Positions 54,597 to 58,441 of a DNA stretch of 64,000 bases are shown here, piece after piece. The DNA is taken from the NCBI GenBank assembly GCA_963674735.2, contig CAXXQS010000002.1:1184001-1248000 (forward strand), given 5' to 3'. The translations under genes and the position numbers were made by a program. Origin of the DNA: Myxococcota bacterium (lineage in GTDB: Bacteria > Myxococcota_A > SURF-8). The notes under the pieces were generated by a model. The model saw only the letters and a program-made list of their open reading frames with translations. It was not told the origin of the DNA and searched no databases. Numbering within the stretch: the stretch's first letter is position 1; each line of letters begins with the position of its first letter.

Positions 54597-54644
54597 TTGA
54601 CAAAGCGTAGAGCGGATGCTATCAATAGCCATTCCGTGAGTCAA
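54597..54644. promoter_or_regulatory. Overlapping opposite-strand sigma70 promoters
   Basis: Plus TTGACA-N17-TATCAA (54597..54625); minus TTGACT-N17-TAGCAT (54644..54616). Confidence 0.55.
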
Positions 54645-54743: not shown

Positions 54744-56474
54744 ATGGAAAAGACGCTGGCTTTGGTGATTGACGACCAGGAATCGATCCGAAAAACCTTC
54801 CGGTTTTTTCTGGAAGAGGAGGGTTATGAGGTCGCCACAGCCGGAACCTACGAAGACGGGATGGCGGTGATTGCCGAGCGTACTCCATCGGTCGCCTTGA
54901 TCGATATCATTCTCGGCAGTCGTAGCGGCGTTGATTTTCTTCGTGAAATCAAACATTTCGAGATGGAGTTCCCGGTTGTCATGATCACGGGGGAACCCAA
55001 TCTGGAAACCGCCACCGATGCTCTGCGTCTCGGAGCCTTCGATTATCTAGCCAAGCCGGTCGATAAGCGCAAGTTACTCGATGTCACGTACCGTGCCACA
55101 CGCTACAACGAGCTTCTGGCCGAACGTCGCCGTGCCCAGGAAGACCGCGAACACGCCCGGCAGCAACTTCTGGCTGTTTTCAATGGTGTGGGCGAAGGTT
55201 TGATTCTCATCAACGGTGAGGGGCGGGTACGCGAAATCAACCAGGCCACCTTGCAACTGCTGGGTTTTCCCCGTGATGAAGCGATCGACCGTCCGCTGGA
55301 GCAGTTGTTTCCGCGTGTGGCGGATGTCATGAACGACGGCCTCCAGGATGTCTTGAAAAGGAACAAACAACAGGCCGAAGCAACGGTCGATGATCCTTTC
55401 CGTCGGGGTGGCAAGGAAGTGTTTCATGCCAAGATTTCGCCTTCAGCCGAACGCGCCGGGCAACGAGGTGCGGTGGTCGTTTTACGCGACATCACGCGCC
55501 TGCGCGCTTTGGAGCAACATGTCAGCGAGCGGACGCGGGTGCATAATCTGATCGGTAAAAGCAAACCGATGCAGGAGATCTACCACTTGGTGGAAGTGCT
55601 GCGCGATACCGATACCACGGTTCTGATTCAAGGGGAGAGTGGTACCGGAAAAGAACTGGTGGCCGCCGCTTTGCATTACCAGGGTCCGCGAGCGCGGGGA
55701 CCGTTTATTCCGGTCAACTGTACGGCGCTCAACGAGCAACTGCTTGAGTCGGAGCTTTTCGGACACGCCAAAGGCTCGTTTACCGGAGCGATCGCCAACA
55801 AAATCGGTCGCTTCGAAGCGGCGGAGGGGGGGACGATTTTCCTCGACGAAATCGGTGATGTCTCTTCCAAATTGCAGACGAAATTATTGCGTGCGCTGCA
55901 GGAGCGAACCGTTGAACGAGTCGGTGAATCCCGTCCACGCAAGGTGGATGTGCGTGTCGTGGCCGCCACCAATGTCGATCTTGACGCCAAGGTGAAGGAA
56001 GGGGCCTTCCGTGAGGACCTTTTTTATCGTCTCAACGTGGTGCGCGTCATGATGCCCGCCCTGCGCGATAAAAAAGAAGATATCCCCCTTCTGGCCGAAC
56101 ATTTTCGGCAAAAACTACTGACACGTTTAACCAAACCGATTGAGGGCTATACCGACGAAGCGTTCCGTCTGATGCTGATACACGAATGGCCGGGGAATGT
56201 GCGTGAGTTGGAAAACGCTGTGGAACATGCCTTTATCATGAGCAACGGACCCCTGATCGATGCCGTGCATCTGCCTAAAACCGTTCGTGAACCCAGCGAC
56301 TTGCTTAATGCCGGTCGCGGTGCGGGTGGCATGAGCGAACGTGAGCAAATTCTTGAAGCCTTGGTAAAAAGCGCCGGAAATCGCAGCAAGGCCGCCAATA
56401 TGCTGGGGATCAACCGCACTACGCTTTATCGACGCATGCAGCGTTGGAATATCGCCGATCCGACCCGCCTCTAG
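54744..56474 (+). CDS. Sigma54-dependent activator, REC-PAS-AAA+-HTH
   Basis: IDDQ REC domain, PAS (EGLILIN..VLRDIT), GESGTGKE, ESELFGHAKGSFTGA, Fis HTH. Confidence 0.95.
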   Translation: MEKTLALVIDDQESIRKTFRFFLEEEGYEVATAGTYEDGMAVIAERTPSVALIDIILGSRSGVDFLREIKHFEMEFPVVMITGEPNLETATDALRLGAFDYLAKPVDKRKLLDVTYRATRYNELLAERRRAQEDREHARQQLLAVFNGVGEGLILINGEGRVREINQATLQLLGFPRDEAIDRPLEQLFPRVADVMNDGLQDVLKRNKQQAEATVDDPFRRGGKEVFHAKISPSAERAGQRGAVVVLRDITRLRALEQHVSERTRVHNLIGKSKPMQEIYHLVEVLRDTDTTVLIQGESGTGKELVAAALHYQGPRARGPFIPVNCTALNEQLLESELFGHAKGSFTGAIANKIGRFEAAEGGTIFLDEIGDVSSKLQTKLLRALQERTVERVGESRPRKVDVRVVAATNVDLDAKVKEGAFREDLFYRLNVVRVMMPALRDKKEDIPLLAEHFRQKLLTRLTKPIEGYTDEAFRLMLIHEWPGNVRELENAVEHAFIMSNGPLIDAVHLPKTVREPSDLLNAGRGAGGMSEREQILEALVKSAGNRSKAANMLGINRTTLYRRMQRWNIADPTRL

Positions 56475-56475
56475 C

Positions 56476-56518
56476 GCAACACTAGTGTTGCACCAACCTG
56501 TTGCACTATCTGCAACAC
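56476..56518. promoter_or_regulatory. Candidate enhancer (bEBP binding sites)
   Basis: GCAACACTAGTGTTGC palindrome and TGTTGCA-N5-TGCAACA about 105-150 bp upstream of a sigma54 promoter. Confidence 0.65.
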
Positions 56519-56622
56519 TTCACTCCGGATATCCCTGTATGCCTCGTTCAATTTTTTGTCTTTAGTTGTGTAAATCCTTGTAATTACTTATCATTGTTTG
56601 TAAAACGACCTTTACGTGGTTG

Positions 56623-56639
56623 TTGGCACACATATTGCT
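56623..56639 (+). promoter_or_regulatory. Sigma54 (-24/-12) promoter
   Basis: TTGGCAC-ACATA-TTGCT with exact GG-N10-GC spacing. Confidence 0.8.
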
Positions 56640-56649
56640 TAGAGTTTAC

Positions 56650-57020
56650 TTGGAATTGATAACCTCTACTTTCAACCAAGCGACCCAGCCATCCGAGAAC
56701 GCCGTCTTGCTGGAGTGTTTGGTTTGTAACCGACGCGTTTTTACACATCTTTTGGTGAACATTGGTTCTTTGATTTGCAGTTGCAAATATTACTCTTTTT
56801 GAGTGTAATGTTTGGTGTGTTTTGAGCGCTTGGCGGAACCGCACGCCGTCTCGTCGCAACGGGCTCCTCGGATCCTCGACCCACTTCAAACCCAGTCCGA
56901 TCCCGGAAAAGCCGGGGAAGCCTGAAATCCTCCCAAGTGGTTTGTGCGGAACTCCTAAGGTTAATTCCCTCCCTGTGTGTGCCCCCTCCACCCGATTGGT
57001 GTGAGGGGGCGCTCTCTTTT
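56650..57020 (+). ncRNA. Candidate sigma54-dependent small RNA or long leader
   Basis: No credible CDS between the sigma54 promoter and a GC hairpin plus T-rich tail; clustered CCTCC/CTCCT motifs. Confidence 0.55.
56981..57020 (+). terminator. Probable intrinsic terminator
   Basis: GCCCCCTC..GAGGGGGC stem followed by GCTCTCTTTT. Confidence 0.6.
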
Positions 57021-57186
57021 AATTTGTTGCAGATCGTTGTTTGGGATAAACGCAAAAAATGCGCTTCGCGTCTGAGGGAAAACCGGCTTGGGACGATCAA
57101 TTCGATTAATTTTCAAAAGTAGCGGAATGTCATGGATATCCTGGCTATCTAGCAACACATATAGCTGTTGCCTAAGGAGATGTTGG

Positions 57187-57639
57187 GTGAGATTAACAAA
57201 AGCGAGTGATTACGCCCTGCGCCTGATGACCAGTTTGGCCATGGTAGAAAGGGATGCAATTGTCAGTATTCGGGAAATGGCCATGCGTACCGATGTTCCG
57301 CGAAGCTTTTTGGCGAATATCGCCCAGAAGTTGTCGGCGGCCGGTTTGATCGATAGTTCGAAAGGGGCGCGGGGGGGGCTAAAGTTAAAACGCAAGCCGG
57401 ATGAGATTACGGCTCTGGATATCATCGAGGCGATCGAAGGACCGTTGGAGTTTTCCACCTGCCAATCGATGGATGGGTGCCGCCATGAGGATTATTGCAG
57501 TGTCCGCCCATTGATGGAGACTTTGCGCGAGCAGGTAGCCGAAACGCTCGGTTCAACGACCTTGTCCATGTTGGTGGAACAGGGGAGCGGGCAGTTCTGG
57601 GGTGCTTTCTCGCTTATGGATTCCTCTTCCGGGTCGTAA
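57187..57639 (+). CDS. Rrf2-family regulator with three Cys (Fe-S type)
   Basis: GTG after AAGGAG; SDYALR, GARGG, DIIEAIEG, C-x5-C-x5-C. Confidence 0.92.
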   Translation: MRLTKASDYALRLMTSLAMVERDAIVSIREMAMRTDVPRSFLANIAQKLSAAGLIDSSKGARGGLKLKRKPDEITALDIIEAIEGPLEFSTCQSMDGCRHEDYCSVRPLMETLREQVAETLGSTTLSMLVEQGSGQFWGAFSLMDSSSGS

Positions 57640-58441
57640 GTCCGGTTAAAAGTTCCTCCAACTCATTCAGGTCGATCATGCAAGATGCATCGGAGAGCGC
57701 CTTTTCCGGGCTGTCGTGCACTTCCAGAAACAATCCGTCGATACCGAATGCCACCGCCGCCCGCGCGAGCGGTTGAACGAAAAGCGGGCTACCGCCGCTT
57801 TTTCCGGTGGCGGCCGATGGCCGTTGCACCGAGTGGGTGGCGTCGAAGATTACCGGTGCACCCAATTCCCGCATCCAAGCAAAAGAGCGAAAATCCACGA
57901 CCAGATCGTGGTAGCCGAAGGCGGTTCCCCTCTCGGTCAGCAGGACGTTCGACGCACCGGCGGAGCGGGCTTTCTCCAAGGCGTATTGCATGTCGGGTGG
58001 CGCGACGAATTGCCCTTTTTTCAGGTTGATCGTGCGACCCGTGGCGGCGGCGGCGACGATCAGGTCGGTTTGGCGGCTGAGAAAAGCTGGGATTTGAATG
58101 ATATCGAGAACTTCAGCTGCCGGGGCTGCCTGACCGGGCTCGTGGATATCGGATAAAATCGGTAGCCCGGTGCGGTGTTTGACGCTTTCGAGAATGGCCA
58201 GACCGCGTTTCAATCCCGGACCGCGATAGCTGTTCAGGCTGGTTCGGTTGGCTTTGTCGAACGACGCCTTGAAGATCAGAGGAATTTCATAGCGTTGGGC
58301 GATGTCGGCGAGATGGTCGGCCATCATCAACGCATGCGCCTCCGATTCGATGACGCAGGGACCGGCGATCAGAAAAAGCGGCGCACCCTCCCCGGCGGAT
58401 ATACCCGGGGCGATCTTGAATGCGCGTGATTCAGCGTGCAT
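57614..58441 (-). CDS. kdsA: KDO-8-phosphate synthase
   Basis: IAGPCVIES, KASFDKANRTS, QIPAFLSRQTDL, FDATHSVQ. Confidence 0.97.
   Translation of the reverse strand: MHAESRAFKIAPGISAGEGAPLFLIAGPCVIESEAHALMMADHLADIAQRYEIPLIFKASFDKANRTSLNSYRGPGLKRGLAILESVKHRTGLPILSDIHEPGQAAPAAEVLDIIQIPAFLSRQTDLIVAAAATGRTINLKKGQFVAPPDMQYALEKARSAGASNVLLTERGTAFGYHDLVVDFRSFAWMRELGAPVIFDATHSVQRPSAATGKSGGSPLFVQPLARAAVAFGIDGLFLEVHDSPEKALSDASCMIDLNELEELLTGLTTRKRNP

Follow-up and report, generated by a model that had tools for sequence, protein, structure and literature searches.

The locus considered here raises the question of whether the DNA behind a gene for a sigma-54 enhancer-binding protein (the activator) holds a gene of its own and, if so, what that gene does. 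The locus lies at positions 56476-57025 of a 64-kb window (the whole stretch of DNA that was analyzed) from a Myxococcota bacterium, the source genome of which (G000) is 5.26 Mb in length, has a G+C content of 56% and contains 3,892 genes by our own calls. We favor, with reasonable confidence, the reading that these positions form a gene complete in itself, whose product is a non-coding RNA of ~370 nt that would depend on sigma-54 and on the activator and would act by the mechanism outlined below. A stand-alone, undescribed RNA gene driven by sigma-54 is probably the best reading, because the layout recurs in another genus, rpoN is present, there is no match to an Rfam family and no open reading frame (ORF) is conserved.

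In the collection searched, the class of the source genome is represented by only 10 genomes and the phylum by 401 (400 besides G000). Two of the class genomes encode an ortholog of the activator. These are G004 and G003, each from another genus, with G003 representing the sister genus. The comparison of the RNA itself rests on two sequences, those of G000 and G004. Where contigs from runs X1 and X3 overlap the window, their sequence is the same, and they add no variation.

The activator gene, its predicted sites and the promoter

The elements of the upstream part of the locus are the following.

54744-56474, plus strand: gene for the enhancer-binding protein, with REC, PAS, sigma-54 AAA+ (GSFTGA loop) and HTH_8 domains in a Pfam scan
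56476-56491, no strand assigned: predicted upstream activator site 1, GCAACACTAGTGTTGC, a perfect 16-bp palindrome of GCAACACT/AGTGTTGC
56499-56517, no strand assigned: predicted upstream activator site 2, TGTTGCACTATCTGCAACA, of the form TGTTGCA-N5-TGCAACA
56521-56622, no strand assigned: AT-rich spacer between enhancer and promoter, 36% G+C against 56% for the genome
56624-56639, plus strand: sigma-54 promoter TGGCACACATATTGCT, TGGCAC-N5-TTGCT, with GG at 56625-6, GC at 56637-8 and a predicted start at about 56650

The original prediction placed two palindromes directly after the activator stop codon, followed by an AT-rich spacer and a near-perfect sigma-54 promoter, and all of these elements were recovered. 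The activator ORF is open from a TTG at 54597 and ends with a TAG stop codon at 56472-56474. The protein most likely begins at ATG 54744 (576 aa), a start favored by the orthologs and by a ribosome-binding site, and not at the first TTG. The Pfam scan assigns its AAA+ part to Sigma54_activat (PF00158, 1.1e-69). The orthologs in G004 and G003, found by searching the 10 class genomes, are 66% identical and have GAFTGA in the AAA+ loop in place of GSFTGA; the HTH of the G003 protein is nearly identical to that of the G000 activator. All other activators are no more than about 44-50% identical to the G000 protein, in the AAA+ and HTH region that they have in common with it, and searches with the protein against metagenome contigs and against genome contigs returned one 48%-identical paralog each. 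Each of the three genomes contains about 11-27 matches to this sigma-54 activator (E<=1e-60). The sigma-54 factor gene rpoN is present in all three genomes tested, G000, G004 and G003 (PF04552 above cut-off).

Activator site 1 is centered about 140 bp upstream of the promoter. The clustered half-sites, which are conserved in G004, lie at -148 to -107 and are candidate binding sites for the activator. The G004 counterpart of site 1, GCAACACTTCTGTTGC, stands directly past the activator stop codon, and that of site 2, TGTTGCACTGCAACA, is in the same place as in G000. Palindromes of GCAACA/TGTTGC are not enriched in the genome (17, compared to 13 for a reversed control), and three of the 17 fall within 700 bp at this locus. 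The 8-mer half-site GCAACACT/AGTGTTGC has 78 genomic copies and forms clusters (<300 nt) at two loci only, one of which is the locus described here. The AT-rich spacer may aid DNA looping; no good site for integration host factor was found in it by eye.

In the sigma-54 consensus, GG stands at -24 and GC at -12, with the spacing of TGGCAC-N5-TTGCW, and the GG and GC of the promoter at 56624-56639 are spaced accordingly. The counterpart in G004 is TGGCAT-N5-TTGCA. Sites of the form TGGCAY-N5-TTGCW occur 18 times in the G000 genome (9.3 expected), and the strict form occurs 13 times (5.2 expected). A pyrimidine just precedes every one of the 18 sites, most of which are located just upstream of ORFs. 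Four of them, this promoter included, are just downstream of a same-strand activator gene; thus, the layout is usual in this genome.

The proposed activation step follows the textbook arrangement and the conservation of its elements. A signal received at the REC and PAS domains would cause the activator made from the upstream gene to bind the GCAACA/TGTTGC sites at 56476-56517. The bound activator would then loop across the AT-rich spacer and open the sigma-54 promoter, and transcription would stop at a hairpin and U-tract at 56979-57025.

The predicted RNA unit and its counterpart in a second genus

The features predicted for the transcript, most of which belong to its 3' domain, are listed in order of position.

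56650-57025, plus strand: predicted non-coding transcript of ~375 nt, with both ends placed from the promoter and the terminator
56650-56835, plus strand: 5' half, U/G-rich, 43% G+C, about 40% column identity to G004
56839-56844, plus strand: 5' strand of the outer stem P0, CCGCAC, which pairs with 56944-56949 and is kept in sequence in G004
56862-56871, plus strand: 5' strand of stem P1, GGCUCCUCGG, which pairs with 56912-56922 and holds the motif CTCCTC
56872-56911, plus strand: C-rich apical loop of ~40 nt, where conservation in the locus is highest; CCUCGACCC and UCCGAU are invariant words in it
56912-56922, plus strand: 3' strand of stem P1, CCGGGGAAGCC; P1 comprises 10 bp with a bulge
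56944-56949, plus strand: 3' strand of the outer stem P0, GUGCGG, inside the conserved block UGUGCG
56965-56974, plus strand: C-rich linker UUCCCUCCCU before the terminator; G004 has CUCCCCCCUU, with 7 of 10 bases kept
56979-57025, plus strand: intrinsic terminator, with a G+C-rich stem of 10 bp (56979-56988 paired to 57003-57012) and then an interrupted U-tract

The whole RNA has a predicted minimum free energy of -126.2 kcal/mol (z=-2.96), and none of 100 shuffled sequences is as stable. The functional part would be the 3' domain, in which two nested stems present the C-rich loop, with the C-rich single-stranded linker after it. The string of conserved words in the apical loop is CCUCGACCC..UUC.AA.CCA.UCCGAU. 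The predicted probability of being unpaired is 0.70 for the loop in G000 and 0.69 in G004, and for the linker it is 0.60 and 0.42, respectively. The sequence past the terminator stem is TCTCTTTTAATTT; a simple terminator scan flags the inner part of the terminator only (57003-57016).

In G004, the activator ortholog is followed by half-sites, an AT-rich spacer, the promoter, about 390 nt, a 13-bp hairpin and UUUCCCUUUUU. The neighboring genes all differ, with an MMPL transporter upstream and convergent genes for a nikR-like protein and a glycosyltransferase downstream. Only the activator and the RNA are common to the two loci, and no same-strand gene follows the G004 RNA. From the different neighbors, we infer that the RNA travels with the activator, as an independent gene and not as a leader of the Rrf2 gene. 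The comparison of the two genomes establishes the module, its independence from neighboring genes and the conserved design of a loop on a stem. The recurrence of the layout in a different neighborhood, together with the presence of rpoN, also upholds the suggestion that sigma-54 would drive a stand-alone RNA here.

Within the RNA, conservation is highest in the 3' domain. Over the 5' half, 25-column windows show about 40% identity to G004, which amounts to alignment noise. Identity peaks at 56870-56919 (36 of 50 columns), with a lesser peak at 56945-56994 (29 of 50). A 23-base pattern made from the conserved core has exact matches in two of the 401 phylum genomes, G000 and G004, both at the syntenic site. 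When up to two mismatches were allowed in the same 401 genomes, an extra match in G122 was dismissed as chance, as it falls inside high-G+C coding sequence. A looser 21-base core pattern has no match in the metagenome contigs, and blastn of 56476-57187 found no match in 40 relatives. A covariance model of the 3' domain, run against the 10 class genomes, recovered only its two source sequences, and the RNA is single-copy; one match in G006 (E=0.23) was taken for noise.

Folded separately, the two 3' domains share one design, which consists of P0, built from the conserved blocks CGCAC and GUGCG, P1, the apical loop, the C-rich linker and the terminator. The strands of P1 differ in sequence between the species and nevertheless pair; all 12 cells of the inner 6 bp are consistent with pairing, with one two-sided and one one-sided change. 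G004 has a terminator hairpin and U-tract in the corresponding position, and its stem differs by three two-sided changes. A check of covariation among relatives had been proposed at the outset and comprises these two sequences only; all six P1 pairs are kept, with the one two-sided change.

Several points weigh against a stand-alone RNA gene of this design. There is no such RNA beside the activator ortholog in G003, and the 3'-domain covariance model finds none in G003 or in seven other class genomes. The outer 4 bp of P1 are paired in both species, in registers two columns apart. The covariation score, computed from two homologs only, is reached by 246 of 500 shuffles; given that only two sequences are available and that shuffles do as well, the conservation of pairing is not statistical proof. 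Because the U-tract is interrupted, read-through into the Rrf2 gene is possible in G000. Expression of the RNA and its start and end are likewise predictions from the DNA.

The original prediction described about 370 nt lacking a credible ORF and ending in a hairpin and a T-rich tail, and this description holds, as no ORF in the unit is conserved or called. The codon-usage gene finder calls none, and a six-frame comparison of G000 and G004 found no conserved ORF, with similar short matches in all frames. An alternative is that the unit codes for a small protein, either by itself or in combination with a regulatory 3' end as a dual-function RNA. Open frames do exist: one begins at TTG 56650, spans 50 codons and encodes CxxC and CxC, and one begins at TTG 56822 and spans 60 codons. 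An analogous unit in G003 (described below) has an 81-codon ORF with a strong ribosome-binding site. However, no frame is conserved beyond nucleotide identity. In both species, the frame that matches best lacks a start codon before the core is reached. The ORF in the 5' half of the G000 unit has neither a G004 counterpart nor a ribosome-binding site, and the ORF in G003 is an orphan. A protein product is highly improbable.

A second alternative denies a separate gene. It concerns two features beyond the terminator.

57152-57171, no strand assigned: third palindrome, GCAACA-N8-TGTTGC, 16 nt before the Rrf2 start
57187-57639, plus strand: gene for an Rrf2-family regulator (Pfam), with its own AAGGAG ribosome-binding site, a neighbor of the RNA in G000 only

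According to this alternative, the Rrf2 gene is transcribed from the sigma-54 promoter, behind a long structured leader in which the hairpin is an attenuator. The Rrf2 gene is indeed on the same strand, 165 nt past the hairpin; the U-tract is interrupted, a simple scan finds no sigma-70-like promoter in 56000-57700, and the third GCAACA palindrome precedes the gene. However, the homologous unit in G004 is followed by convergent genes only, and not by an Rrf2 gene or any other same-strand gene. The G004 ortholog of the Rrf2 gene is located away from the RNA locus and has a different upstream region, the terminator hairpin is kept in both species, and the Rrf2 gene has its own ribosome-binding site. 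That the unit is a 5' untranslated region of the Rrf2 gene, which had been named as the explanation to exclude, is therefore very unlikely, and we retain the independent RNA gene.

The third palindrome, which the original prediction did not mention, may be a further site at which the activator acts on the Rrf2 gene. The idea that it is an Rrf2 operator was rejected, as the Rrf2 orthologs in G004 and G003 have no such palindrome in front of them. These orthologs share another upstream palindrome, of the type GTTAGAC..GTCTAAC. The Rrf2 gene (plus strand, end 57639) and a convergent DAHP_synth_1-family gene (minus strand, end 57614) overlap by 26 nt at their 3' ends (57614-57639), and a CMP-KDO-synthetase-like gene is next to the DAHP_synth_1-family gene.

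Possible modes of action

The original prediction was of a translational repressor, in which six pyrimidine motifs in the 3' half, complementary to Shine-Dalgarno (SD) sequences, would occlude ribosome-binding sites. Several observations agree with this. The 3' end of the 16S ribosomal RNA has the canonical CCUCC. Anti-SD-like pentamers are in excess in G000, with 14 at 56840-57000 compared to 2.8 in mononucleotide shuffles (P=0.001) and 6.1 in dinucleotide-preserving shuffles (P=0.01). The motifs at 56873, 56928 and 56965 are predicted to be mostly unpaired (0.76, 0.77 and 0.60). The RNA chaperone Hfq (PF17209) was found in none of the three genomes (G000, G004 and G003), and Hfq-independent small RNAs (sRNAs) such as RsaE/RoxS use C-rich loops against ribosome-binding sites.

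All six motifs are present where they were predicted, but only two are both accessible and conserved. These are TCCTC at 56873, within the invariant CCUCGACCC (4 of 5 bases kept in G004), and the linker at 56965 (7 of 10). The motifs at 56864 and 56982 are inside predicted stems, with probabilities of being unpaired of 0.04 and 0.00, and those at 56928 (3 of 7) and 56952 (3 of 5) are not conserved. Moreover, there is no excess in G004, pairing to start regions is no better than that of shuffled sequences, and neither CCUCGACCC nor the 9-mer of the linker has a complement in a start region. The claim that six anti-SD motifs make this RNA a translational repressor consequently fares poorly, and we consider it unlikely.

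A broader form of pairing is suggested tentatively, as possible rather than probable. In this proposal, the C-rich loop and linker would pair, independently of Hfq, with G-rich segments of messenger RNAs (mRNAs), for example at ribosome-binding sites. In the 3' half, C exceeds G in both species (64 to 46 in G000 and 66 to 40 in G004). The word UCCC occurs four times in G000 and five times in G004, compared to about two expected (P=0.15 and 0.06), and UCCC and CCC words are at homologous unpaired places in both RNAs. We keep C-rich pairing as the most likely mode because of the shared C excess, the unpaired UCCC and CCC words and the failure to find Hfq. The main alternative, ranked second, is that a protein docks on the loop.

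A series of results counts against pairing as the mechanism. Anti-SD pentamers in G004 number two, against about four expected (P=0.82 to 0.89). For the 61-nt start regions of all 3,892 genes, the calculated duplex energies with the loop, with the linker or with the stretch between the stems equal those of shuffled and intragenic controls. In this calculation, the linker pairs with start regions less well than all three of its shuffles, and no target at a ribosome-binding site stands out. None of the 87 genomic GGGTCGAGG sites, which are complements of the invariant CCUCGACCC, is near a start codon. Complements of the invariant words near start codons number zero for a 9-mer and two for an 8-mer. 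The single candidate target of the 8-mer, an acyltransferase gene at C1:690313-691902, was rejected, as its ortholog in G004 (67% identical) lacks the site. Perfect complements of at least 13 nt are at chance level, the longest being one AT-rich 17-mer outside called genes. The start regions of the Rrf2 gene and, in both species, of the activator gene show no notable pairing with the RNA.

Alternatively, the RNA may be a decoy that sequesters an RNA-binding protein, with the loop as the dock, as CrcZ does with Hfq/Crc and RsmZ/CsrB with CsrA. CsrA is encoded in all three genomes (G000, G004 and G003), and a long invariant loop without a detectable mRNA complement fits recognition by a protein. 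The size of ~370 nt and the place past the activator gene also match CrcZ, so far as the excerpt of PMC6296734 describes it. On the other hand, neither RNA contains a repeated binding motif, and a pattern like that of CrcZ or of a CsrA sponge was rejected on this basis. The A-rich Hfq/Crc motif AANAANAA is absent from both RNAs. CsrA sponges of the CsrB/RsmZ type carry many GGA motifs in their loops; here, GGA occurs seven times in G000 and six times in G004, compared to 4.3 and 3.6 expected (P=0.12 and 0.13), and A(N)GGA occurs zero times and twice. A single loop offers a single site and would make a poor sponge, and no Hfq was found. We regard a decoy as improbable.

Related loci and known systems

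Three other loci resemble parts of the unit. In G000, outside the window and on the minus strand (C1:~1838400-1838700), an orphan sigma-54 promoter, TGGCACCATGTTTGCT, faces away from an activator gene at C1:1839365-1840303. About 300 ORF-free nt follow the promoter; they contain four to five CAGCAGUAUCG repeats, and there is a strong terminator. The arrangement suggests another RNA that depends on sigma-54, in this case made of repeated motifs.

The sole other cluster of the 8-mer half-site is also in G000 outside the window (C2:1332880-1333760, minus strand), where two AGTGTTGC-N9-GCAACACT sites (1333621-1333760) are 545-680 nt upstream of an orphan sigma-54 promoter at 1333078 on the minus strand of C2. 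A non-coding unit of ~210 nt, ending in a hairpin and a U-tract, follows this promoter, and then a 27-codon ORF. This unit, too, may be under the control of the activator described here.

In G003, an unlinked sigma-54 unit (L043:1330-1990; G003:C2:~1545270-1545930) has three TGTTGC/GCAACA half-sites, at -171, -159 and -130. Its promoter, TGGCATGAAGATTGC, is almost the same as the G004 promoter, and the ~460 nt past it contain an orphan ORF of 81 codons that has a strong ribosome-binding site and, at the structured 3' end, a hairpin with a C-rich loop and a terminator. The product of this ORF matches no Pfam family and was found in one of the 10 class genomes, its own. The unit was rejected as a homolog of the G000 RNA, as the two cannot be aligned beyond the promoter.

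No Rfam family matches the 64 kb at gathering score, so the RNA has not turned out to be a known one; three weak matches in the region are unrelated (E 1.8 to 7.4). The models of CrcZ/CrcY, Qrr, Pxr and GlmY have no match within the window. A weak match to the narK motif (RF03032) at 56625-56708 (14.5 bits, E=5.5) is aligned only through the promoter letters GGCACA..UUGCU. Thus, the RF03032 model may itself include a sigma-54 promoter, and the match is uninformative about the RNA. The description of the RNA as novel stands for the family, which has no Rfam match, and does not stand for the principle, as modules of this kind are already known. On present sequence evidence, this is a new RNA family, with two members, in a known kind of layout.

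CrcZ and CrcY contain several A-rich AANAANAA motifs that bind Hfq/Crc. Unlike these RNAs, the RNA described here has no Rfam match and none of the A-rich motifs, and no Hfq was found; its functional element appears to be one long C-rich loop instead of repeated motifs. The activator also differs from CbrB in its extra PAS domain. The likeness is in the layout, as CrcZ/CrcY-CbrB of Pseudomonas and Azotobacter likewise has an sRNA gene of ~400 nt directly past the gene for its own sigma-54 activator. The comparison with cbrB-crcZ made in the original prediction is borne out by the excerpt of PMC6296734, in which crcZ is downstream of cbrB and several CbrB subsites, TGTTAC/GTAACA, with variable spacing, are upstream of crcZ. 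These subsites are one base off TGTTGC/GCAACA, and both systems have several short subsites (PMC6296734, same excerpt).

Two activators of Desulfovibrio vulgaris Hildenborough, DVU0653 and DVU0679, provide another parallel. In the portion of PMC4641369 on which we draw, the only or main target listed for each is a "ncRNA downstream of" (non-coding RNA) its own gene, with a role in post-transcriptional regulation. As here, a response-regulator-type sigma-54 activator is paired with an adjacent non-coding RNA. Unlike the RNA described here, those of DVU0653 and DVU0679 are from a different phylum, and the two are likened by description in that portion and not by sequence, with no Rfam match on our side.

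The comparison can be extended to Vibrio and Myxococcus. Qrr RNAs are about 100 nt long, Hfq-dependent and multicopy, and a conserved single-stranded stretch in them pairs with several mRNAs. Pxr of Myxococcus is a developmental sRNA under a sigma-54-type promoter and an NtrC-like activator. Unlike Qrr, the RNA described here is single-copy and ~370 nt long, with no Hfq found and no Rfam match; it also differs from Pxr in size and structure and in having no Rfam match. With Qrr/LuxO it would share the principle that a REC-AAA+-HTH activator and sigma-54 drive an sRNA; LuxO and its sRNAs are treated in PMC4878744 and PMC11407668.

A more speculative picture, to which we assign a low probability, combines these observations. 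The orphan REC-PAS activator and the RNA would be a portable two-gene signaling cassette in bacteria where no Hfq was found, and the near-invariant C-rich loop of ~40 nt would be a new kind of recognition surface, either a multi-target seed or a protein dock, and not a simple anti-SD sequence. The same activator may run a small regulon made up only of orphan sigma-54 RNA units, and in G003 the output may have been exchanged for the unlinked unit of ~460 nt with its orphan 81-codon ORF.

To our knowledge, very few regulatory RNAs have been described outside a handful of model phyla. The pattern of a sigma-54 activator whose adjacent target is an RNA and not a protein operon is already in the literature for Pseudomonas and Desulfovibrio; unless the loop works in a new way, the gain is therefore incremental. 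The present locus would add a case to this pattern, which spans phyla. Post-transcriptional control in a sparsely sampled class of bacteria would become open to study through an sRNA of this kind, controlled by a signal and bearing a long, conserved C-rich loop.

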